Shown here: positions 1,754 to 62,398 of the stretch, piece after piece
Numbering within the stretch: position 1 is the stretch's first letter
Layout of the letters: every line of letters begins with the position of its first letter
DNA from: Escherichia phage LH2
DNA: 64,000 bases
Sequence record: OQ378934.1
Strand: one strand, 5' to 3'
The notes under the pieces: model-generated
What the model was told of the DNA's origin: nothing
Database searches by the model: none
What the model saw: only the letters and a program-made list of their open reading frames with translations
Program-made: the position numbers and the translations under genes

Positions 1754-1757
1754 GTTA

Positions 1758-1787
1758 AGGACTCCTTCGGGAGTCCTTTTTTATTTT
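1758..1787 (+). terminator. rho-independent terminator
   Basis: Hairpin AGGACTCCTTCGGGAGTCCT followed by a T-run. Confidence 0.7.
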
Positions 1788-7455: not shown

Positions 7456-7655
7456 TGCATATCGTAATGATAGGTGTTAATGAGAAACTATCATTAGTTA
7501 AGCTTAAAAACTTGGGTGGAAATCCAATTGGTGTCATTAATGCTGTTTTTGATACTGCTCTTCAAACAATGAAACAGTATAAAATCGACGCATGCCTATT
7601 ACGCGTACTAAAAAGTTCAAAATGTAGTTTACAAGTCCCTCGTGTTGTGTTATAA
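7452..7655 (+). CDS. paralog of the Alt N-terminus, fragment B (67 aa)
   Basis: MMHIVMIGVNEKLSLVKLKNLGGNPIGVINAVFDTALQTMKQYKIDACLLRVLKS aligns to Alt residues 65-130 in a shifted frame. Confidence 0.4.
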   Translation: MMHIVMIGVNEKLSLVKLKNLGGNPIGVINAVFDTALQTMKQYKIDACLLRVLKSSKCSLQVPRVVL

Positions 7656-7687
7656 TAATCTTACTGACATAACACGAGGAACACAAA

Positions 7688-7978
7688 ATGAAATCTTCTT
7701 TGCGCTTTTTAGGTCAAGAACTTGTAGTTGAAGGCGTTATTCCTGCTGATAATGCTTTTAATGAAGCAGTTTACGATGAATTTATCAAAATTTTTGGAAC
7801 AGATAAAAAGTTCGGAATTTTTCCTTCTGAAAATTTTTCAAAGCCAGAGCAGACTGAAAGTATTTTCCAAGGTGTAGTAACAGGTAAATTTGAGTCAGAA
7901 GCTCCGGTAAAAATTGAAGTTTATATTGAAGACAGTTTAGTTGCTTCAGTTGCTGCTTTTATTTCATTCCGTAAATAA
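7688..7978 (+). CDS. hypothetical protein, 96 aa
   Basis: ATG ORF ending at a convergent terminator. Confidence 0.5.
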   Translation: MKSSLRFLGQELVVEGVIPADNAFNEAVYDEFIKIFGTDKKFGIFPSENFSKPEQTESIFQGVVTGKFESEAPVKIEVYIEDSLVASVAAFISFRK

Positions 7979-49141: not shown

Positions 49142-49719
49142 TTATAATACCCCGCTTTAACTCGCCCCTTTAAGGTACTATAATTTATATTAAGAGCTTT
49201 AGCTGCGATTTTAATACTTTTATATAAAACGCCGTTGATAATAATAGATTTAGCATTAGGGGCTATTTTGCCATACATTGGGTTATTGGCGCCGCACATC
49301 TTCGGAGTTTTACCTCTAGGCCCTCTAGGCCCTCTTTTTCTAGACGATTTAATGCTAATTTTCAATCTAGTTTCACGCGAATGAGATTTACCGTAAAATC
49401 CATTTTTAACACCCGCTGTGCTATGTTTTGGGAAGCCACCGATACCACCTAGTTTCATATTATAAGTTTTCTCAGATTTAACAAATTCCTCTGTGACTAT
49501 TTCTGCCTCTGCGTCATACATAGCTTTTTCAGATTCAAAGAATTTTATAATATGCTTATAAAAATTATCTATGCCATATTTTTTAATGGCATTTTTAATG
49601 GCAACGCCAGAACCCATATACCCATCATCCAAATTTGAAGTTTTATGGACACCTACATAAATTTTTCCCGTTGTTTTATTAGTTATTGAATACAAATAAA
49701 AATATTTATGGCCTCTCAT
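49129..49719 (-). CDS. GIY-YIG homing endonuclease, 196 aa
   Basis: [18 protein letters not shown] ... DDGYMGSG ... NMKLGGIGG; paralog of the segB-like and segE-like genes; NUMOD-like motif [13 protein letters not shown]. Confidence 0.75.
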
Positions 49720-53924: not shown

Positions 53925-54748
53925 TGGCTATTTTTCAAATAATTAATGAAAGCACTCCCCAAGTTCCAAAGGTTAAGCAATCATTAAACGAAAAGAAATG
54001 GATTCAGATAGGTCTTGAATATAAAAAGGCCAAAGCAAAAGGAATGACAGGAAAGCAATTTGCTGAAGAAAGAGGAATTAAATACTCTACGTTTACTTCA
54101 GCAATGTCAAAATATGCTTCAGGAATTAAAACAGCTGAAAAGATTCAAAAGCTTGAATCAAAACCAATGAATAAACTCAATAAGCAAGAAAGACAACTGC
54201 TTATGATAAATTCATTCAGACAAACATTGCGCGATAAAATTCGTAATGAAGGTGCAGCAATTAATAATAAAACCAGAAAGTGGTTTGCTGAAACTATTAA
54301 GCAGGTAAAAGGACATAAAGTTGTTCGCCCGCAGCCGGGACGAATATATGCTTTTGCTTATGATGCTAAACACAAAGAAACTCTTCCTTATTGGGATAAA
54401 TTTCCTTTGATAATTTACCTCGGTTTAGGTAAACATAATTTAATGTACGGATTGAACTTGCACTATATTCCACCTAAAGCTCGTCAGCAATTTCTAGAAG
54501 AGCTTTTAAAGCAATATTCGAATACACCTACTATTACTAATAAAACGAAATTAAAAATTGATTGGAGTCAAGTGAAAGGATTTAGGGGTGCAGACCAAAT
54601 GATTAAGGCATATATACCCGGTAATATTATGGGTAACCTTGTTGAAATCGCCCCGAAAGACTGGGCGAACGTTGTATTAATGCCACTCCAAAGCTTTTAC
54701 TCCAAAGGAAAACGTTTCTCTGCAAACAAAGTTTGGTCAAATATCTAA
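53924..54748 (+). CDS. 2: DNA end-protector protein gp2
   Basis: 274 aa as in T4. Confidence 0.85.
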
Positions 54749-55434: not shown

Positions 55435-56147
55435 ATGAAACTAATCTTTTTAAGTGGTGTAAAGCGTAGTGGAAAAGATACTACTGCAGATTTTATCATG
55501 AATAATTATTCTGCAGTTAAATATCAACTTGCTGGTCCTATTAAAGATGCATTGGCTTATGCATGGGGCGTATTCGCAGCAAACACTGACTATCCTTGCT
55601 TAACTCGTAAGGAGTTTGAAGGAATTGACTATGATCGTGAGACTGATTTAAATCTGACTAAATCAGAAGTAATCACGATTATGGAACAAGCATTTTGCTA
55701 TCTTAACGGTAAAAGCCCAATTAAAGGTGTGTGTGTTTTTGATGACGCAGTTAATTTCGTAGCATTTAATAAGATTATTGACGTTATAAATAATATTGAA
55801 GATCAATGGTCAGTCCGTCGTCTGATGCAAGCCCTAGGTACGGATTTGATTGTTAATAACTTCGACCGCATGTATTGGGTAAAATTATTTGCTTTAGATT
55901 ATCTTGATAAATTTAACTCAGGTTATGATTATTATATCGTTCCTGATACTCGTCAAGATCATGAAATGGATGCGGCTAGGGCGATGGGTGCTACAGTAAT
56001 TCATGTAGTTCGTCCTGGTCAAAAATCCAATGATACACATATTACAGAAGCTGGATTGCCAATTCGTGATGGCGATTTAGTAATTACAAACGATGGTTCT
56101 CTTGAAGAACTTTTTTCTAAAATTAAAAATACACTAAAGGTACTATA

Positions 56148-56148
<1 letters not shown>
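55435..56148 (+). CDS. 1: deoxynucleoside monophosphate kinase gp1
   Basis: 237 aa; P-loop GVKRSGKDT. Confidence 0.85.
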
Positions 56149-56845
<697 letters not shown>

Positions 56846-56857
56846 TTTCACAAAGTT

Positions 56858-56894
56858 GTTTACACGTTGATGAGGTAGTGATACTATTACCTCA
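56858..56894 (+). promoter_or_regulatory. early promoter (GTTTACA, 17 nt, TACTAT) with embedded stem-loop
   Basis: Stem TGAGGTA/TACCTCA around loop GTGATACTAT; same loop as the module at 57191. Confidence 0.5.
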
Positions 56895-56917
56895 TCAAAA
56901 TTAATTAGGAAAATAAA

Positions 56918-57190
56918 ATGAAAACTTTCAAAGAATTTATCGTTGAATCTGCTCTTAATGAAGAAGTAAAAATTAGCAAAGCTGTCAAGACTATGATTGC
57001 TGACATCAATTACCTATATGGTATTGATTTAACTGACTATGTAACAGTTGGTAACAAACGTAACTATTTCGTGTTTGACATCTCTGAACTTGACCAGAAT
57101 CAAATTAACAACATTGAGCGTTTTGCTAATGATAAGGGTCTTCGACACGAGCCTGGTGGCTATAAAAAATACGCAATTTATTTAAAATGA
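56918..57190 (+). CDS. internal-protein-like protein with capsid-targeting-sequence-like N-terminus, 90 aa
   Basis: N-terminus MKTFKEFIVESA resembles the T4 internal-protein targeting sequence (MKTYQEFIAEA, from memory); lies in the ipI-equivalent locus. Confidence 0.55.
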   Translation: MKTFKEFIVESALNEEVKISKAVKTMIADINYLYGIDLTDYVTVGNKRNYFVFDISELDQNQINNIERFANDKGLRHEPGGYKKYAIYLK

Positions 57191-57229
57191 GTTTACTTTT
57201 AGATAGGGTAGTGATACTATTACCCTATC
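57191..57229 (+). promoter_or_regulatory. early promoter (GTTTACT, 17 nt, TACTAT) with embedded stem-loop
   Basis: Stem GATAGGGTA/TACCCTATC around the same loop GTGATACTAT. Confidence 0.5.
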
Positions 57230-57248
57230 AACTACAGAGGAGAATAAA

Positions 57249-57431
57249 ATGAAACGTTGTGAATTAATTCGAAATGTTGCTATTGCAATTTCTGCTTCCG
57301 CTTTTAGTTTTTCAATGTTTGTTGGATTTATATGCGGATTATTAACTACAGCAGAAAATGTGTTTTCACTTGTAGTAGCATTTTTAATTGGTTTAATCGC
57401 TATCGTTATGGATAAAATTTCTAAAGGTTAA
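57249..57431 (+). CDS. small hydrophobic (membrane) protein, 60 aa
   Basis: ATG ORF with GAGGAG Shine-Dalgarno; two hydrophobic segments. Confidence 0.45.
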   Translation: MKRCELIRNVAIAISASAFSFSMFVGFICGLLTTAENVFSLVVAFLIGLIAIVMDKISKG

Positions 57432-57433
57432 TA

Positions 57434-57721
57434 ATGATTCTTTATGCGAAAGTATCATCCATTGAAAATGGATATAAATATGATCAAGATGCGGCTAAAG
57501 CCTTGATTGATGATTATGGCATTTTAACGTGTTTTGAAGTTGAAAAGGTTTACATTGACCGCTCATCTTCTCAGGTTAAATTAGTGAATGAAGACCGTAA
57601 ATTTAATACAGTAAATTTTGATTTCTTTATTGAAACAGAAAAAGGTCCTCTTGAATATGATATTTTCAAGAATCCTTTGGGTCTTGAATGCATCGTAAAT
57701 ATGTATTATCATAAATGGTAA
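57434..57721 (+). CDS. hypothetical protein, 95 aa
   Basis: ATG ORF; stop codon abuts the tRNA middle promoter. Confidence 0.5.
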   Translation: MILYAKVSSIENGYKYDQDAAKALIDDYGILTCFEVEKVYIDRSSSQVKLVNEDRKFNTVNFDFFIETEKGPLEYDIFKNPLGLECIVNMYYHKW

Positions 57722-57724
57722 ATA

Positions 57725-57749
57725 TGCTTTAAGAATTATTTGTTATTAT
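57725..57749 (+). promoter_or_regulatory. MotA-dependent middle promoter for the tRNA cluster
   Basis: TGCTTTA, 12 nt, TATTAT; 29 nt identical to the gene 31 promoter at 391. Confidence 0.55.
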
Positions 57750-57818
57750 TAACTCATATCTCACTGATTAATACCCTCTATCATCAAGGGTTCTTGCTTG
57801 AGAGCCTTTGTTAATAAT

Positions 57819-57891
57819 TGGGAATTAGCCAAGTTGGTAAGGCATAGCACTTTGACTGCTAGATGCAAAGGTTCGAGTCCTTTATTCCCAG
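57819..57891 (+). tRNA. tRNA-Gln (anticodon UUG)
   Basis: Cloverleaf folded by hand: acceptor TGGGAAT/ATTCCCA, anticodon loop CTTTGAC, T-arm AAAGG-TTCGAGT-CCTTT. Confidence 0.85.
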
Positions 57892-57892
57892 C

Positions 57893-57979
57893 GCGAGAAT
57901 GGTCAAATTGGTAAAGGCACAGCACTTAAAATGCTGCGGAATGATTTCCTTGTGGGTTCGAGTCCCACTTCTCGTACCA
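57893..57979 (+). tRNA. tRNA-Leu (anticodon UAA), type II, CCA encoded
   Basis: Acceptor GCGAGAA/TTCTCGT, anticodon loop CTTAAAA, long variable arm, T-arm GGGTTCGAGTCCC. Confidence 0.85.
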
Positions 57980-57985
57980 AAGTTT

Positions 57986-58057
<72 letters not shown>

Positions 58058-58069
58058 AAATTTAATTTA

Positions 58070-58143
58070 CTCCGTGTAGCTCAGTTTGGTAGAGCGTCTG
58101 CTTTGGGAGCAGAATGTCGTAGGTTCAAATCCTGCCACGGAGA
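58070..58143 (+). tRNA. tRNA-Pro (anticodon UGG)
   Basis: Acceptor CTCCGTG/CACGGAG, anticodon loop TTTGGGA, T-loop TTCAAAT. Confidence 0.85.
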
Positions 58144-58145
58144 CT

Positions 58146-58232
58146 GGAGGCGTGGCAGAGTGGTTTAATGCACCGGTCTTGAAAACCGGCAGTCGCTCCG
58201 GCGACTCATAGGTTCAAATCCTATCGCCTCCG
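58146..58232 (+). tRNA. tRNA-Ser (anticodon UGA), type II
   Basis: Acceptor GGAGGCG/CGCCTCC, anticodon loop CTTGAAA, long variable arm. Confidence 0.85.
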
Positions 58233-58239
58233 TAATTTC

Positions 58240-58312
58240 GCTGATTTAGCTCAGTAGGTAGAGCACCTCACTTGTAATGAGGATGTCGGCGGTTCGATTC
58301 CGTCAATCAGCA
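58240..58312 (+). tRNA. tRNA-Thr (anticodon UGU)
   Basis: Acceptor GCTGATT/AATCAGC, anticodon loop CTTGTAA. Confidence 0.85.
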
Positions 58313-58318
58313 TATCAA

Positions 58319-58390
58319 GGCCCTGTAGCTGGAAGGTTCAAGCAAGCGACTCATAATCGCCAGATGGTGGTTCAATTCCACCCAGGGCCA
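58319..58390 (+). tRNA. tRNA-Ile (anticodon CAU, presumably lysidine-modified)
   Basis: Acceptor GGCCCTG/CAGGGCC, anticodon loop CTCATAA; T4 carries an Ile tRNA of this type. Confidence 0.75.
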
Positions 58391-58431
58391 TATTTTGGGA
58401 ACATAAATATTCTTAGAAATAGGAGATATTT

Positions 58432-59097
58432 ATGTTCCATTACATTTATAAAATAACAAATAAAATTAATAATAAAATCTATATAGGCGCTCATTCTACC
58501 GAAAATTTAGATGATGGATATATGGGTTCTGGTAAATTATTAAAAAGAGCCCAAGACAAGTATGGTATAGAAAATTTTTCTAAAGAAATATTAGAGTATT
58601 TTGATGATAAAGAATCTATGCTTGAGTCAGAAAAGAATATTGTGACTGAAGAGTTTTTAAAGCGCCCTGATGTTTATAATTTGAAATTAGGTGGTGAAGG
58701 TGGTTGGGACCATTTAAACACTAAAGAATATTTGGATAAAAAGAAAGAAGCTTCCTTAAAAGGGGCTGCTGCTTTTAAAACCAGATTTGAGAACGACCCA
58801 GACCTTAAAGAAAAATATCGTAAAATGGGTTCAGAAAGGTTTAAACAGCTTTGGGATAATCCTAAGTATAGAGAGAAATTTTTAAATATTAAATCTTTCT
58901 TGGGTAAGACCCATACTCCTGAAACTATTAATAAAATGAAAGAATCTCACGCCAGAAATAAACACCAACAGGGCGAAAAGAATTCCCAATTTGGTATGAT
59001 GTGGATTCATTCATTAGATGAAAAAGTTTCTAAACGTATTAAGAAAACTGACCCAATTCCAGAAGGATGGTTTAAAGGTCGAAAAATGAAATTTTAA
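58432..59097 (+). CDS. segB: GIY-YIG homing endonuclease inside the tRNA cluster (SegB-like)
   Basis: 221 aa; YIYKITNKINNKIYIGAHS ... DDGYMGSG ... NLKLGGEGG; sits between tRNA-Ile and tRNA-Arg as segB does in T4. Confidence 0.8.
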   Translation: MFHYIYKITNKINNKIYIGAHSTENLDDGYMGSGKLLKRAQDKYGIENFSKEILEYFDDKESMLESEKNIVTEEFLKRPDVYNLKLGGEGGWDHLNTKEYLDKKKEASLKGAAAFKTRFENDPDLKEKYRKMGSERFKQLWDNPKYREKFLNIKSFLGKTHTPETINKMKESHARNKHQQGEKNSQFGMMWIHSLDEKVSKRIKKTDPIPEGWFKGRKMKF

Positions 59098-59100
59098 TTA

Positions 59101-59177
<77 letters not shown>

Positions 59178-59179
59178 AA

Positions 59180-59487
59180 CAAGAAACCGGGTCGCTACCG
59201 GTAAGTCGTCGGACTGATGTTCCCTGGAGTATAGTTTCTCCCACAGTTTTACTGTGTTCTGATTCTTTACTATCACAACAGAAACGGCGCACCGAATTAT
59301 CGATTCGAGGAAATATCTTTGCCGTAAGCCGAGTAGCGTTTTTGACGGAACGTTCGGATATGGTCGAGATATGGCCTTTTAAAAATATTGAGTAGCGTCA
59401 ACTGCTTAATAACCGGGTTCAAATCCCGGCGTTTCGTACAAACACTTGCCTTAGCAGGTGGAACCCCGACAAGATTGCCGCAAGGCT
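59180..59487 (+). ncRNA. stable-RNA region (T4 rnaC/rnaD-like), boundaries not resolved
   Basis: About 300 nt ORF-free and GC-rich, directly after tRNA-Arg, ending at a terminator; contains a tRNA-like T-arm CCGGGTTCAAATCCCGG. Confidence 0.4.
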
Positions 59488-59488
59488 T

Positions 59489-59516
59489 AGCCCCACCCGA
59501 AAGGTTGGGGCTTTTT
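59489..59516 (+). terminator. rho-independent terminator, copy 1 of a duplicated terminator
   Basis: Hairpin AGCCCCACCCGAAAGGTTGGGGCT plus TTTTT. Confidence 0.7.
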
Positions 59517-59518
59517 GG

Positions 59519-59526
59519 TATAAATA
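59519..59526 (+). promoter_or_regulatory. late promoter TATAAATA
   Basis: Exact consensus 40 nt upstream of the ORF at 59566. Confidence 0.5.
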
Positions 59527-59565
59527 TAGTAGTATATTAAATCACGAATTAAAACAGGAAATAAG

Positions 59566-60024
59566 ATGAAATCATATGCTCAATTTTTAAATGAAGCATC
59601 CGCTTCAGATGTTCGCGCTGTAGCAACTGCTGCTATTAAAGCTGGTAAATATTCTTATAAAGATGCTTCTGACGAATCTCGGTACAAGTTCTACGACGAT
59701 ATGAGAGCTGAAGGCTTTGTGGGTAACTATGTTACCACCGCCTGGAAAAGCCTGGTTGCTACTGGTGCGGCTTTCGAAAAACCTTCCGGTAAACCTGCTC
59801 CTAAGGCTGACCCTAAAGCAGCACAAGAGAAAAATATTGCTAAAGGAATTATCTCTAGGTATGAAGCAATTCTTAAAGAACTTTTGGTAATTAAGACCGA
59901 AGGCCAGAAACTTGCGCGAGCTCATAGTTTCAAAGATAACCCACATGCTCATGACCTAGAGTATGTTGAAGATCTCCAAAAAATCATCAAAGACCGCATT
60001 TGGTCTGCTAAACAAATCAAATAA
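59566..60024 (+). CDS. internal-protein-like protein with capsid-targeting-sequence-like N-terminus, 152 aa
   Basis: N-terminus MKSYAQFLNEASA resembles the T4 internal-protein targeting sequence; driven by a late promoter; flanked by duplicated terminators. Confidence 0.55.
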   Translation: MKSYAQFLNEASASDVRAVATAAIKAGKYSYKDASDESRYKFYDDMRAEGFVGNYVTTAWKSLVATGAAFEKPSGKPAPKADPKAAQEKNIAKGIISRYEAILKELLVIKTEGQKLARAHSFKDNPHAHDLEYVEDLQKIIKDRIWSAKQIK

Positions 60025-60031
60025 CATTCTT

Positions 60032-60059
60032 AGCCCCAGCCGAAAGGTTGGGGCTTTTT
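60032..60059 (+). terminator. rho-independent terminator, copy 2 of a duplicated terminator
   Basis: Hairpin AGCCCCAGCCGAAAGGTTGGGGCT plus TTTTT; one mismatch versus copy 1. Confidence 0.7.
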
Positions 60060-60193
60060 GGTATCTAGGCCTTTCTGGATCTCTCTAGGCATCATTTAGT
60101 TTCTACCTTTTATAATATATTATCCTATCCTTTAATTGCCCCTCCCTGCCCTAGAATTCCCTAAAACTTTTTAAAAAATTTTTTCACAAAACT

Positions 60194-60223
60194 GTTTACA
60201 TCCCTGTTCTTCCATGGTACTAT
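60194..60223 (+). promoter_or_regulatory. early promoter (GTTTACA, 17 nt, TACTAT)
   Basis: T4 early promoter consensus upstream of the ORF at 60268. Confidence 0.45.
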
Positions 60224-60267
60224 ACAACTATCAACTACTGATACAGAAAAACAACTTGGAGAATGAA

Positions 60268-60531
60268 ATGGATAATTACGGCGAACTGTTCAACTTCTTT
60301 ATGAAATGCGTTTCAGAAGATTTCGGTCGTACAGTGAATGATATTAAAGTTATCGGTCCTGATCATCCGATGTTTGAAACTTACGCAGTAATGGGTAATG
60401 AAGATGGTCAGTGGTATACTGTAAAGGTTGTGATTAACATGTTCACTGCTGAAGGTTATGTTAAACTGTCTTCTAAAGTTTACCATGATAACGACGAAAT
60501 CGCAGAAGAATATTTTAATAATATGAAATAA
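60268..60531 (+). CDS. hypothetical protein, 87 aa
   Basis: ATG with GGAGAA Shine-Dalgarno; the ORF-track start at 60214 lies inside the promoter. Confidence 0.5.
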   Translation: MDNYGELFNFFMKCVSEDFGRTVNDIKVIGPDHPMFETYAVMGNEDGQWYTVKVVINMFTAEGYVKLSSKVYHDNDEIAEEYFNNMK

Positions 60532-60567
60532 GTTTACATAGGCTCATGATTGAGATATTATGAGCCT
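60532..60567 (+). promoter_or_regulatory. early promoter (GTTTACA, 17 nt, TATTAT) with embedded stem-loop
   Basis: Stem AGGCTCAT/ATGAGCCT overlaps the -10. Confidence 0.5.
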
Positions 60568-60586
60568 ATAATTTGAGGAAACTGTT

Positions 60587-61105
60587 ATGCCTCTTTATAC
60601 CGAACTGAATGAAACTTCCGAAAAATCTTTTGATGGTATCTTATCAATAATGCAAAAGCAGGTATTAGAACAGCTTAGTGAAGCCGCAAGCAACGGACAT
60701 AAGGCTTGTCGAATCCCAAGCCCACATCGTCGCCTGTATGAACGCCCTCTTATTAATTGGCTAGAAAGCGAAGGTCTTACAGTTAAGATTTGTCCTGCCA
60801 AATTTGATGTCCCACGTATTCTTAATATTTACTGGGATAAACCGATTGAGAAAAGTGAACCTTGGGTTGTCAATGTAAAAACATATGATAATGGATGCTC
60901 ACTTGAGGTGTCTGCTGTAATTAAAGGCACTCACGGTGAAAAATCGTGGGGTTGGCCTGGTAAAGATAAAGAAATCGTGTTAAGTGTAAAAGCTACTAGT
61001 ATTAGTACTCCTATAGCTAAAAGCATTATCGCCGCCGCTGTTGAAGAAGCTGAACGAATTTGTAAAATTAAAAATAGTTTACATCTCTTAAATAGCATGA
61101 TATAA
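60587..61105 (+). CDS. hypothetical protein, 172 aa
   Basis: ATG ORF downstream of the early promoter module. Confidence 0.5.
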   Translation: MPLYTELNETSEKSFDGILSIMQKQVLEQLSEAASNGHKACRIPSPHRRLYERPLINWLESEGLTVKICPAKFDVPRILNIYWDKPIEKSEPWVVNVKTYDNGCSLEVSAVIKGTHGEKSWGWPGKDKEIVLSVKATSISTPIAKSIIAAAVEEAERICKIKNSLHLLNSMI

Positions 61106-61148
61106 TTCTTCCACAGATTTTAATTTTTAATCAACCTAAGGAAATACT

Positions 61149-61742
61149 ATGAACACACTGAAGAAAATTGTTGAGTTTATTCGCACTAAACTTGGTTCTG
61201 CTATGGCTAAAAATCTATCTGCTGAAGAACAGTATACTGCTGCAGCAGCAAAACTTCTTGATAAAATTAAAGACCTAAAAACTGCTTCTGTTAAATCTAT
61301 TAATGAAGAAAAACGTATTCGTGAACTTGTTATCGAAAAGAATCGACAAGCCGAATCAAAAGAGCGTGAAATTCGCAAACTTCTTTCCGAAGGTCAAGAT
61401 GTAACAATGCATGCTAAGCTCGGTTTACTATATCGTCGAACAGCTGAGCAGTTGACTACTAAAGCTGATGGTTATGCTGAAATGCGAATTGAAATCGCCA
61501 AGAAAGTAGTTGAGTTAGATGATGCTCGTCAAGAACTTGCAGTTAAATTGGAATATATCCGTGAAACTCGTGCGGCAAATGCCCTTGGAATTAGTACTGC
61601 TGATGATGTAGTTGAAATCGCAGCGCTAACTAAGGTTGATATTGAAGATACTCTTGCTCGAGTTGAAACCTTTAACGGTAATATTTCCGGGGTTGAAACT
61701 ACCTCTGCCGATGTTCAGGAATACATTAATTCTCTGAAATAA
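61149..61742 (+). CDS. coiled-coil protein, 197 aa, possibly PspA/IM30-like
   Basis: Almost entirely alpha-helical heptad-type composition; PspA-like call is a weak impression from pattern only. Confidence 0.45.
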
Positions 61743-61746
61743 TGAT

Positions 61747-61764
61747 AAGGGGCTTCGGCCCCTT
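61747..61764 (+). terminator. hairpin, probable terminator
   Basis: AAGGGGCTTCGGCCCCTT; weak T-run. Confidence 0.4.
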
Positions 61765-61783
61765 ATACTTGGAGTAAATAGGA

Positions 61784-62398
61784 ATGAAAATGAAAATGCA
61801 AAGTGATTTCAATTCAATGTTTGAAGAGTTCCAAAGACAGGTTGATGTTCCAGACCAATTACTAAATGCTCTTAAACGTATGGCAGAAGGACGTAATTAC
61901 TATTGGGGGTCTTCATATGAAACTGATGAAAGTCTTTCTGGAAGATTTTCTAGAGGTAAAAAGTCTTTAATACGTCCTGGAATACTCATTAACAGTATTG
62001 AATCAATTCATTCATTGACGTGTGATTTTGATGTTGAATTTACTGATTTCATTTCTCCTGAATGGACAGTTTGTTATTTAAATGACGATTATGATTATCT
62101 TGGCGTTTATAGTTTAAGTGACGCATGGTTTAAACGTAATTTACAAAAGTCAAATTTGTTCTATATTGATACTACGGTAAAATTTCAGGGAAAGAAATAT
62201 TTCTTTACTCTTATAGTTGATTCTGAAACAAAGCATGAAAATAAACGTATTCTTAGTAAAAAGAATATCTTAACTATTGTTGATGATCTTTTTGATAAAT
62301 TCGTGGAAAATCCTAATTTTGAAAGCGATTTATTATTAGAAAAATTTGTTAAGGAATGTAGAGAATATGTCAAAGCCATCATTATACCTTCCAAGTAA
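61784..62398 (+). CDS. hypothetical protein, 204 aa
   Basis: ATG ORF with GGAG Shine-Dalgarno. Confidence 0.5.
   Translation: MKMKMQSDFNSMFEEFQRQVDVPDQLLNALKRMAEGRNYYWGSSYETDESLSGRFSRGKKSLIRPGILINSIESIHSLTCDFDVEFTDFISPEWTVCYLNDDYDYLGVYSLSDAWFKRNLQKSNLFYIDTTVKFQGKKYFFTLIVDSETKHENKRILSKKNILTIVDDLFDKFVENPNFESDLLLEKFVKECREYVKAIIIPSK

Follow-up and report, generated by a model that had tools for sequence, protein, structure and literature searches.

What does an inverted repeat do when it is threaded through an early promoter, and why does such a promoter recur beside the small accessory genes of a T4-like phage? Both questions are raised by the internal-protein (IP) locus of Escherichia phage LH2, which extends from 57B to tRNA.4 in the 64,000-nt stretch of a Tequatrovirus (T4-like) genome analysed here (OQ378934.1; hereafter the window). 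A first-pass annotation had claimed four modules in which a promoter overlaps a hairpin, at 1807, 56858, 57191 and 60532, and had stated that cassettes of this kind are described as recombination hotspots in T4-type phages. All four modules are present, and the statement on the literature is accurate: the cassettes are the PeSLs of Arbiol 2010 (PMC2839356) and Comeau 2014 (PMC4122927). We conclude that the repeated promoter and hairpin modules are genuine and that they mark swap sites of small accessory genes in LH2. They are already known in kind, since such elements were reported from this locus in 1994 and the name PeSL dates from 2010; in agreeing with Repoila 1994, Arbiol 2010 and Comeau 2014, they are an ordinary finding.

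The strict motif GTTTAC-N18-TANNNT occurs seven times in the window, compared with 0.84 expected, and none of 100 shuffles reached seven. All seven matches lie on the + strand, which is the coding strand, and the whole-window scan found no strict-motif module in the late-gene block at 8-54 kb. This window-wide search added three modules that had been missed earlier, at 7627, 60194 and 61077. Written as TTTAC[AT]-N17-TAnnnT, the motif fits all seven; the 17-nt spacer claimed in the annotation holds when the -35 is taken as TTTACA/T. A TAYWAT -10 fits six modules, the exception being 1807 with TAGTAT. The annotation had given the -10 as TA(C/G)TAT, which is right for 56858 and 57191 (both TACTAT) and for 1807 and wrong for 60532 (TATTAT), where the leader is also GAGGAAACTGTTATG and not of the claimed GAGAATAAAATGAAA type. 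TGn is found in six of the seven modules, and the 25 nt upstream of the modules have an A+T content of 68-92%, compared with 64% window-wide. The modules are intergenic, and each ends in the Shine-Dalgarno (SD) sequence and initiation codon of the ORF that follows. The PST/T4 PeSL consensus is TTTACW-N17-TAYWAT (Comeau 2014, PMC4122927), and T4 early promoters have been characterised in the literature as being of the 'UP/-35/TGn/-10' type; the T4 GenBank records have no promoter features annotated over the IP-locus region. The modules and their surroundings are listed below, where the hairpins of 56858, 57191 and 60532 form class A and those of 1807 and 7627 form class B.

1807-1866, + strand: module 1807 (class B); -10 TAGTAT at 1831-1836; predicted +1 near 1843; ATG at 1864
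1821-1828 with 1849-1856, + strand: hairpin arms of module 1807, the 5′ arm in the promoter spacer and the 3′ arm over the SD AAGGAG (1852-1857)
7627-7690, + strand: module 7627 (class B), upstream of alt.-3; -10 TATAAT at 7651-7656; predicted +1 near 7663; ATG at 7688
7638-7646 with 7671-7679, + strand: hairpin arms of module 7627, the 5′ arm in the spacer and the 3′ arm over the SD GAGG (7676-7679)
Downstream of module 7627, + strand: alt.-3; Pfam DUF5498
56858-56920, + strand: module 1 (class A), between 57B and the IP gene; -35 GTTTAC at 56858-56863
56867-56877 with 56888-56898, + strand: hairpin arms of module 1, 11 perfect bp
56879-56887, + strand: TGn and -10 of module 1, TGA-TACTAT (TGATACTAT); predicted +1 near 56894
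56907-56911, + strand: SD AGGAA of module 1; ATG at 56918
56918-57190, + strand: internal head protein gene, 90 aa, Ip9-like; phrog_7673 'internal head protein', E 3.5e-54
57191-57251, + strand: module 2 (class A), upstream of tRNA.4; -35 GTTTAC at 57191-57196
57202-57210 with 57221-57229, + strand: hairpin arms of module 2, 9 perfect bp
57212-57220, + strand: TGn and -10 of module 2, TGA-TACTAT (TGATACTAT); predicted +1 near 57227
57237-57242, + strand: SD GAGGAG of module 2; ATG at 57249
57249-57431, + strand: tRNA.4 homologue, 60 aa, conserved, downstream of module 2; phrog_1692, E 2.6e-34
60032-60055: intrinsic terminator ahead of module 60194
60194-60270, + strand: module 60194, promoter only, upstream of e.8; hairpin absent
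60532-60589, + strand: module 60532 (class A), upstream of the 172-aa ORF; -35 at 60532-60537; -10 TATTAT at 60556-60561; predicted +1 near 60568
60538-60547 with 60560-60569, + strand: hairpin arms of module 60532; SD at 60575-60579; ATG at 60587
60587-61105, + strand: accessory ORF, 172 aa, flanked by modules 60532 and 61077; phrog_6869
61077-61151, + strand: module 61077, promoter only, upstream of e.6; TTTACA-17-TATAAT with TGn; hairpin absent

RNA folding gives a significant hairpin in five of the seven modules (z from -2.1 to -5.8), with z values of -4.57 for 56858 (-18.1 kcal/mol), -3.43 for 57191, -4.55 for 60532, -2.11 for 1807 and -5.78 for 7627 (-23.2 kcal/mol). Modules 60194 and 61077 have no significant hairpin (z +0.61 and +1.05) and correspond to the degraded or '1/2' PeSLs of Comeau 2014 (PMC4122927). 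The annotation had placed 7-bp stems around a shared loop, GTGATACTAT, in modules 1 and 2. Pairing is indeed kept, but the stems were understated in length, and G·U pairs extend the 11 and 9 perfect pairs to 14 bp (56858) and 12 bp (57191) in RNA folding. The loop is common to both modules and is merely the extended -10 (TGn plus hexamer). Module 2 is a 41-nt direct repeat of module 1, 80% identical, and the stems differ at two adjacent, fully compensated pairs (GA/TC versus AG/CT). The covariation claimed from these two copies thus consists of just two compensated pairs, and it is the relatives that supply the real support.

The 3′ arms of the three class A hairpins stop 6 to 9 nt short of the SD, and in modules 1 and 2 the predicted +1 falls within the 3′ arm. 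The dyad axis of 60532 lies 3 nt upstream of its place in those two modules. Class B loops measure 20-24 nt. The hairpin claimed at 1807 is present, but its loop spans 20 nt and the SD itself forms its 3′ arm, an arrangement found in 16 of 138 unique modules, including the window's 1807 and 7627. A T-run is missing after 56898, 57229 and 60569, where no G/C-rich hairpin passes directly into a U-tract, and the terminator scan called no promoter-overlapping hairpin in the window terminator-like; canonical T-run terminators lie elsewhere in the window (1757-1785 and 60032-60055). An Rfam covariance search of 56000-62000 with E up to 1 returned tRNAs and sub-threshold chance matches only, with no hairpin family.

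To assess selection on the stems, we pooled the early-promoter modules of the window with those of 36 related contigs, T4 and RB32, which gave 118 unique modules. Of these, 43% contain a perfect inverted repeat of 8 bp or more, compared with 2.2% of dinucleotide shuffles, an approximately 20-fold excess. A control motif, GTTTAC-N14-TGATACTAT (16-nt spacer; the window has N15), carried hairpins in ~0 of 84 instances in unrelated viral contigs and in 10 of 23 in T4-like genomes. The annotation had named a lack of hairpin conservation in relatives as evidence against it; the hairpins are in fact kept, with differing stem sequences: TAGGGTA/TACCCTA, TGAGGTA/TACCTCA, AGGGCTAT/ATAGCCCT, AGGGTTAT/ATAACCCT, GGTAGGACTA/TAGTCCTACC and GTGTAGGGATA/TATCCCTACAC. 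Among 43 unselected IP-locus promoters, the window's register has 60% paired cells, compared with 33-47% in slid registers, and its covariation score is 0.232, compared with 0.07-0.167 in slid registers; none of 500 shuffles reached 0.232. Compensated changes occur among orthologues in three different pairing registers. Orthologues of 60532 have the compensated stems CAGGCTCAT/ATGAGCCTG and GGGCTCAT/ATGAGCCC, and those of 61077 (e.6) in other clades have hairpins of their own (GAGGAC/GTCCTC, GGGAAC/GTTCCC and GAGAGC/GCTCTC). The T4 ipI promoter has the stem of module 1 except for the outermost pair (10 perfect bp, TGATGAGGTA/TACCTCATCA), and its spacer reads ATACTG where module 1 has ACGTTG (two positions). 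The orthologues of 7627, five close relatives and too few for statistics, form a G-C, G·U, A-U series at one pair.

Isolated stem positions that depart from Watson-Crick pairing are G·T or T·G in 11 cases and A·C in one (p=0.006), as would be expected if the sense strand folds. The bias fits top-strand single-stranded DNA as well as RNA, and shows only that one strand folds. The hairpin is dispensable, because two of the seven window modules and about half of those in relatives lack it. Chimeric modules with mismatched arms also occur in relatives (L026 at 10470 and 10803; L019 at 11175). Counted per instance, modules behind a canonical terminator rarely have a hairpin (2/17 versus 49/101, p=0.007), an effect that disappears once orthologues are grouped (2/6 versus 21/45, p=0.68); on account of this grouped value, we did not use the notion that the hairpin substitutes for an upstream terminator as evidence.

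Do the modules coincide with the edges of variable genes? Of 20 breakpoint clusters relative to five close relatives, five fall in module zones, which make up 5.3% of the compared sequence (p=0.003); the remaining 15 lie away from modules. The absence of any association with variable gene boundaries, which the annotation had likewise named as counting against it, is thus not what we observe. The Ip9-like gene at 56918-57190 is an accessory cassette between modules 1 and 2. Its N-terminal leader MKTFKEFIVE aligns with the MKTYQEFIAE-type leaders of T4, RB32 and other relatives, its DNA and the RB32 Ip9 region are 87% identical, and homology to all five close relatives stops at 56938-56953, within the leader codons. 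The placement of the IP locus between 57B and tRNA.4 is syntenic with T4 and RB32, some 880 Tequatrovirus records match the region, and the LH2 locus equals the RB32 arrangement 57B-Ip5-Ip9-Ip7-tRNA.4 less Ip5 and Ip7. Relative to RB32, the two crossovers map to the GTTTACTTTTA...GTGATACTATTA core and to leader codons; module 2 is chimeric relative to the RB32 Ip7 and tRNA.4 modules.

A similar picture emerges at the 172-aa ORF, which stands in place of T4 e.7 (the RB32 annotation reads 'replaces e.7'), has no Pfam match and finds no aligning homologous DNA in T4 or in three related contigs (L003, L033 and L034). Homology to the same four genomes stops at 60576-60589, in module 60532. On the far side of the ORF, the hairpin-less module 61077 is a breakpoint in four relatives (61110-61132), and the breakpoint association therefore does not need the hairpin. 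The ORF downstream of 1807 is a 16-codon remnant adjoining a 1.43-kb deletion, and in many Tequatrovirus records homology breaks off at about 7608, near module 7627.

These observations suggest how a module may work. It is an intergenic unit of ~60-90 bp in which an inverted repeat accompanies a strong sigma-70 early promoter, with A/T-rich sequence upstream and an SD-ATGAAA leader at the end. Judging from the consensus and the T4 literature, host RNA polymerase would fire each promoter right after infection, and each small accessory ORF would therefore have its own promoter. By their position in the sequence, the arms fill the only unconstrained parts of the promoter, namely the spacer and the bases between the -10 and the start site. 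The module's own transcript is predicted to begin inside or after the 3′ arm and therefore cannot contain the hairpin, which would consequently act only in read-through RNA from upstream promoters. There it may serve as a boundary element. In class A it would attenuate read-through, protect the 3′ end of the upstream mRNA, or both; in class B it would occlude the SD, so that only promoter-proximal transcripts would be translated. Finally, the modules have 40-70 bp in common (-35, extended -10 and leader, plus the capsid-targeting codons in the case of IP genes), and T4 homologous recombination therefore crosses over within them, as the comparison with relatives shows. A crossover between two modules would delete, insert or swap the enclosed ORF and leave the expression of its neighbours undisturbed. 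A literature search for T4 5′- and 3′-end maps returned nothing usable.

The closest precedent is the earliest one. In EMBO J in 1994, Repoila, Tétart, Bouet and Krisch reportedly described a ~70-bp repeat on both sides of the IP ORFs, in which a palindrome overlaps a T4 early promoter. These ORFs are said to have a common 11-residue leader, and the repeats were reportedly proposed to shuffle the IP genes. The LH2 modules have the same locus (57B, IP genes, tRNA.4), the same design and the same proposed role in IP-gene shuffling; an IP ORF with a capsid-targeting leader lies between 57B and tRNA.4, at the ipI locus, and the stem of the T4 ipI promoter differs from that of module 1 only as described above. 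Nothing essential is different, although the IP complement of LH2 is its own (one Ip9-like gene). Arbiol 2010 (PMC2839356) and Comeau 2014 (PMC4122927) credit Repoila 1994 with PeSL-like sequences at T-even IP loci, without a detailed mechanism.

The PeSLs of RB49/phi1, PST/T4 and nt-1/KVP40 have the same composite order (A/T-rich stretch, -35/-10, stem-loop, SD, ATG) and, like the LH2 modules, lie in hyperplastic regions beside differential ORFs. The window has the early promoter, the A/T-rich upstream stretch, the stem-loop (in five of seven), the SD/ATG end and the association with variable ORFs, and it matches the PST/T4 consensus. Stem-loops over the -10 or between the -35 and -10 are published subclasses (PMC2839356, PMC4122927), and chimeric modules occur at deletion junctions in both systems. 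RB49/phi1 PeSLs have Gn-loop-Cn stems and sigma-70 hexamers that are nearly perfect, and their terminator activity has been demonstrated: the phi1 stem-loop cut lacZ expression as strongly as rrnB T1. A PeSL promoter reached about 13,000 Miller units, in vivo activity having been shown for phi1 elements only. The LH2 stems, unlike these, are A/T-richer, and their terminator role is putative; because they have no T-run, terminator activity is not simply transferable to them from the G/C-rich phi1/RB49 stems. Arbiol 2010 (PMC2839356) itself regards the T-even IP elements, with their weaker, A/T-richer stems, as analogues and not homologues of PeSLs. In the published PeSL accounts, each stem-loop counts as a terminator or attenuator, and an arrangement with the SD as the 3′ arm is not set apart.

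That arrangement resembles the translational gating of T4 genes e, soc, 49 and I-TevI by a hairpin with a promoter inside it (reviewed in PMC3014915), and may follow the same logic, with long transcripts closed and proximal transcripts open. Pairing of the SD with a segment upstream of the start site is found at 1807 (1821-1828/1849-1856) and 7627 (7638-7646/7671-7679), and not at 56858, 57191 or 60532. In the T4 genes, the embedded promoter is a late one (TATAAATA) that delays translation, whereas the promoters embedded in LH2 are of the early sigma-70 type; the effect would therefore be insulation from upstream early transcripts, not temporal delay. A more distant likeness is to integron attC sites, which are also structured, imperfect palindromes with covarying stems that flank promoter-dependent gene cassettes, and circular cassette intermediates have been reported for PeSLs. 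Unlike in integrons, no integrase is invoked, sequence homology explains the recombination, each cassette brings its own promoter, and hairpin-less modules recombine too.

Taken together, the modules are probably the T-even version of PeSL cassettes, acting as read-through boundary elements and crossover sites. The likeliest competing account, that the hairpins are ordinary, efficient intrinsic terminators of the upstream gene that overlap the next promoter through tight spacing, draws on their start 11-24 nt past the upstream stop codon, on the rrnB T1-like performance of the phi1 stem-loop and on the term 'promoter-terminator motifs' in Comeau 2014 (PMC4122927). We consider it unlikely: none is followed by a T-run or called by the terminator scan in a window that does hold canonical T-run terminators (1757-1785, 60032-60055), and the class B loops of 20-24 nt ending in the SD suit translational occlusion rather than termination. 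The hairpins might instead be functionless by-products of recombination or template switching between similar promoters, with only the promoters under selection. Although about half of the modules lack a hairpin, orthologous promoters gain or lose one (for example e.6) and chimeric modules with imperfect stems are viable, a frequency of inverted repeats of 8 bp or more that is 20 times that of shuffles, their absence at the 16-nt-spacer control motif in unrelated contigs, and compensated substitutions with G·U intermediates in several independent registers and loci make this quite improbable.

Two further readings assign the palindrome to DNA. As structure-specific recombination signals, the repeats would target exchange either as cruciforms cut by endonuclease VII or as attC-like hairpins in top-strand single-stranded DNA. 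Stems that covary while their sequence varies, as in attC sites, modules that flank cassettes and coincide with breakpoints, and DNA folds that are significant on both strands (z -2.5 to -5.2) all fit; Arbiol 2010 (PMC2839356) likens the cassettes to integrons and speculates on a stem-loop-binding recombination protein, and the G·T excess could reflect folded top-strand DNA. A cruciform, which involves both strands, predicts no asymmetry between G·T and A·C, yet the ratio is 11:1. Recombination junctions also lie at hairpin-less 61077 and at a plain 36-nt terminator repeat (59486/60029), and common sequence alone therefore suffices. Crossovers also fall outside the palindrome, in leader codons, relatives retain recombinant modules whose stems are broken, and Arbiol 2010 (PMC2839356) found no integrase or dedicated recombinase in RB49/phi1 beyond the usual T4-like machinery. 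We thus regard such signals as very improbable. A combined role, in which the palindromes are both RNA boundary elements and strand-specific folded-DNA signals for an integron-like exchange of anti-defence IP genes with no dedicated integrase, is a long shot; if true, T-even phages would run integron-like cassette exchange for their injected IP genes. The idea that the repeats are operators, bound across the -10 by a dimeric phage or host protein that shuts off early promoters, is scarcely credible. In 29 of the 62 modules that bear a hairpin, the dyad axis does sit on the two leading bases of the -10 hexamer, and early transcription of T4 is switched off within minutes, by means that, according to the literature, are incompletely understood. 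We rejected an operator nonetheless, as the half-sites covary instead of being conserved and the compensated substitutions keep pairing, not a recognition sequence. Other pairing registers exist (-5 and +10 to +12), tolerance of G·T but not A·C is a property of a folded single strand, and half of the early promoters have no repeat at all. The fixed axis was likewise rejected as a sign of a protein: the arms just fill the two unconstrained stretches beside the 10-nt extended -10.

The reading of the modules as PeSL-type boundary elements and crossover sites adds modestly to the literature: quantitative evidence of selection on the stems, support for the sense strand as the one that folds, the observation that a module's own transcript cannot hold the hairpin, and a subclass with an anti-SD in the promoter spacer. 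IP proteins inhibit particular GmrSD type IV restriction enzymes (PMC12373910). The cassettes account for the way in which T4-like phages exchange small injected anti-restriction genes and accessory ORFs with their neighbours undisturbed, which is relevant to host-range evolution and to phage engineering by gene insertion at 'safe' sites.

The region 56000–58000 matched 883 phage records, nearly all Tequatrovirus (top identity 98.8%). Gene order follows that of T4 and RB32 (gene 1, 57A, 57B, internal protein (IP) genes, tRNA.4, tRNA.2, tRNA cluster, segB, e.8 and e.6), with all genes from gene 1 to e.6 on the + strand in the window. The phage is therefore T4-like, and module 1 (56858, between 57B and the IP gene) and module 2 (57191, upstream of tRNA.4) belong to its 'hyperplastic' ipI locus. 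The four early-promoter modules reported in the first-pass annotation were recovered, at the positions given there, by a search of the whole window for GTTTAC-N18-TANNNT, which returned seven copies against 0.84 expected, a number reached by 0 of 100 shuffles. All seven lie on the + strand in intergenic surroundings of 68–92% A+T and are closed by a Shine–Dalgarno sequence (SD) and an ATG; six carry the extended −10 element TGn.

Early-promoter modules in the window, by start coordinate
1807, + strand, perfect inverted repeat of 8 bp, 1821-28/1849-56, RNA fold z = -2.1
7627, + strand, perfect inverted repeat of 9 bp, 7638-46/7671-79, RNA fold z = -5.8
56858, + strand, perfect inverted repeat of 11 bp, 56867-77/56888-98, RNA fold z = -4.6
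57191, + strand, perfect inverted repeat of 9 bp, 57202-10/57221-29, RNA fold z = -3.4
60194, + strand, RNA folding no better than shuffles
60532, + strand, perfect inverted repeat of 10 bp, 60538-47/60560-69, RNA fold z = -4.6
61077, + strand, RNA folding no better than shuffles

By geometry, the hairpins fall into two classes. Class A modules (56858, 57191 and 60532) have arms that close on both sides of the extended −10. The loop GTGATACTAT, said to be shared by the IP-locus copies, is present but is simply this extended −10; likewise, the stems of modules 1 and 2 are compensated as proposed, but differ at only two adjacent pairs. In 29 of 62 cases the dyad axis falls on the first two positions of the hexamer; we read this as use of the sole unconstrained sequence that a 70-bp intergenic space offers. 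Class B modules (1807 and 7627; 16 of 138 unique modules) have their 5′ arm after the −35, and the SD forms their 3′ arm, as in ATCTCCATTTG...CAAATGGAGAT and TTCTCCTCATG...CATGAGGAGAA. No Rfam family matched the hairpins in 56000–62000 at E up to 1. None is followed by a T-run or appears among the terminator-like calls, yet real terminators of the same stretch were called.

Perfect repeats of at least 8 bp occur in 43% of 118 unique modules (from the window, 36 related loci, T4 and RB32), compared with 2.2% of dinucleotide shuffles; the 36 contigs were taken around 57B, at 74–100% protein identity. As a control, we used chance matches in unrelated viral contigs to a closely related promoter-like motif with a spacer one base shorter: 4 of 88 had such a repeat, all four being T4-like sequences, and the figure in recognized T4-like genomes was 10 of 23. 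The hairpin is also conserved in relatives, the tRNA.4 promoter keeping a stem whose sequence differs by clade: TAGGGTA/TACCCTA, AGGGCTAT/ATAGCCCT, AGGGTTAT/ATAACCCT, GGTAGGACTA/TAGTCCTACC, GTGTAGGGATA/TATCCCTACAC or GGGATA/TATCCC. In T4, the same 3′ arm is paired by a displaced 5′ arm (ATAGGGT beside the −35).

Covariation was assessed in 43 IP-locus promoters aligned without reference to pairing, the alignment being gap-free because it was anchored on the promoter. In the window's register 60% of cells are paired (33–47% in slid registers) and the covariation score is 0.232 (0.07–0.167 slid), values to be read with the register originating from a set member and the sequences being kin. Both sides changed in 10 of 14 pairs, and 0 of 500 shuffles reached the observed values. 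Isolated non-Watson–Crick stem positions comprise 11 G·T/T·G, one A·C and three of other types (p=0.006), three of the G·T cases involving fixed promoter bases; among module 7627 orthologues, one stem position is G-C, G·U or A-U. On this sequence evidence, the asymmetry and the series indicate that a single strand, the sense strand, folds. Neither a two-strand cruciform nor a duplex protein site fits the excess of G·T over A·C.

Predicted start sites lie within or past the 3′ arm, so the promoter's own RNA would lack the 5′ arm and the structure could form only in transcripts that come in from upstream. Tequatrovirus has the class A form of the tRNA.4 promoter and other clades have the class B form, which makes a stable helix between two cistrons in read-through RNA the common denominator. 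Class B shares the arrangement that gates genes e, soc, 49 and I-TevI (PMC3014915) and would gate in the same way, with an early promoter. In JS98-like contigs (L061, L065, L069, L094 and L107), many early promoters with 16-nt spacers carry a TCTCC-type anti-SD directly 3′ of the −35, which pairs with the downstream GGAGA SD over 9–12 bp.

The modules had been proposed as recombination hotspots beside accessory ORFs. When the window was compared to T4, RB32 and three closely related contigs, homology ends clustered at 56938-56953, 57184-57254, 60576-60589 and 61110-61132. Five of 20 breakpoint clusters fall in module zones, which cover 5.3% of the sequence (p=0.003); the other 15 lie away from modules. 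As had been claimed, two modules flank the IP ORF (phrog_7673, internal head protein), and two flank the 172-aa e.7 replacement. By three-way alignment, the IP locus is RB32 57B-Ip5-Ip9-Ip7-tRNA.4 less Ip5 and Ip7. Module 1 matches the RB32 Ip5 module up to and including ATGAAAACTTTCAAAGA, and Ip9 thereafter. Module 2 takes its Ip9-side flank from the RB32 Ip7 module and its downstream half from the tRNA.4 module, which places a crossover inside GTTTACTTTTA..GTGATACTATTA. RB32's annotation already records 43-bp direct repeats here. Among relatives' modules, some are chimeric with mismatched arms, and one (L019:11175-11260) contains the −10 and 3′-arm segment (GATACTATTACCTCATCAA) twice, as a slipped tandem duplication, consistent with recombination or slippage within the module core. 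Junctions also occur at the hairpin-less module 61077 and at a 36-nt terminator repeat, which argues that the recombination substrate is shared sequence, not the hairpin.

That intrinsic terminator (GGGGCT plus T-run) is a direct repeat at 59486-59521 and 60029-60064 (97% identical), annotated in RB32 as a '34 bp imperfect direct repeat'. It brackets a 152-aa ORF at 59566-60024 that matches no Pfam family. T4 lacks the ORF and has a single copy of the terminator, so repeated terminators serve as cassette borders too. At 57422-57437, tRNA.3 (411 bp in T4) is missing between tRNA.4 and tRNA.2; flanking alignments overlap by ~10–16 nt in 5 of 5 close relatives, suggesting a deletion between short repeats, away from promoter modules. 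Near module 1807 (1864-1914 and 1879-1884), ~1.43 kb present in phage 236Ecol005PP is gone, with five small ORFs annotated as homologues of the T4 12.9, 14.1, 10.8, 7.3 and 8.1 kDa proteins, probably the gene 30.x cluster. Its left edge lies 15 nt past the ATG and its right edge away from any module. A 16-codon remnant ORF remains downstream of the module, and an intrinsic terminator with a C(UUCG)G tetraloop (1757-1785; GGACTCCTTCGGGAGTCC plus T-run) lies immediately 5′. At ~7608, 19 nt 5′ of the module 7627 GTTTAC, many Tequatrovirus records lose homology; there alt itself lies directly upstream of alt.-3, and alt.-2 appears to be absent. Further breakpoints against close relatives fall at 49142-49706 and 54736-54746, the latter where RB32 has, between genes 2 and 3, a mobB-like homing endonuclease gene that the window lacks.

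Promoter-early stem-loops (PeSLs) were defined by Arbiol et al. 2010 (PMC2839356), who demonstrated promoter and terminator activity of the phi1 elements and mini-circles between adjacent PeSLs. In the account given there, PeSL-like sequences at both T-even IP loci are credited to Repoila et al. 1994 and described as built on early promoters of T4, their stems being weaker and richer in A/T. The PST/T4 consensus is TTTACW-N17-TAYWAT (Comeau et al. 2014, PMC4122927). Both studies match the cassettes that the first-pass annotation ascribed to T4-type phages; its observation is thus confirmed and its interpretation supported, and the promoter–hairpin cassette is an already known phenomenon. Only the bias toward folding of the sense strand and the subclass with an anti-SD arm were not found in the accessible literature, and may be described outside it; they represent small extensions of known principles.
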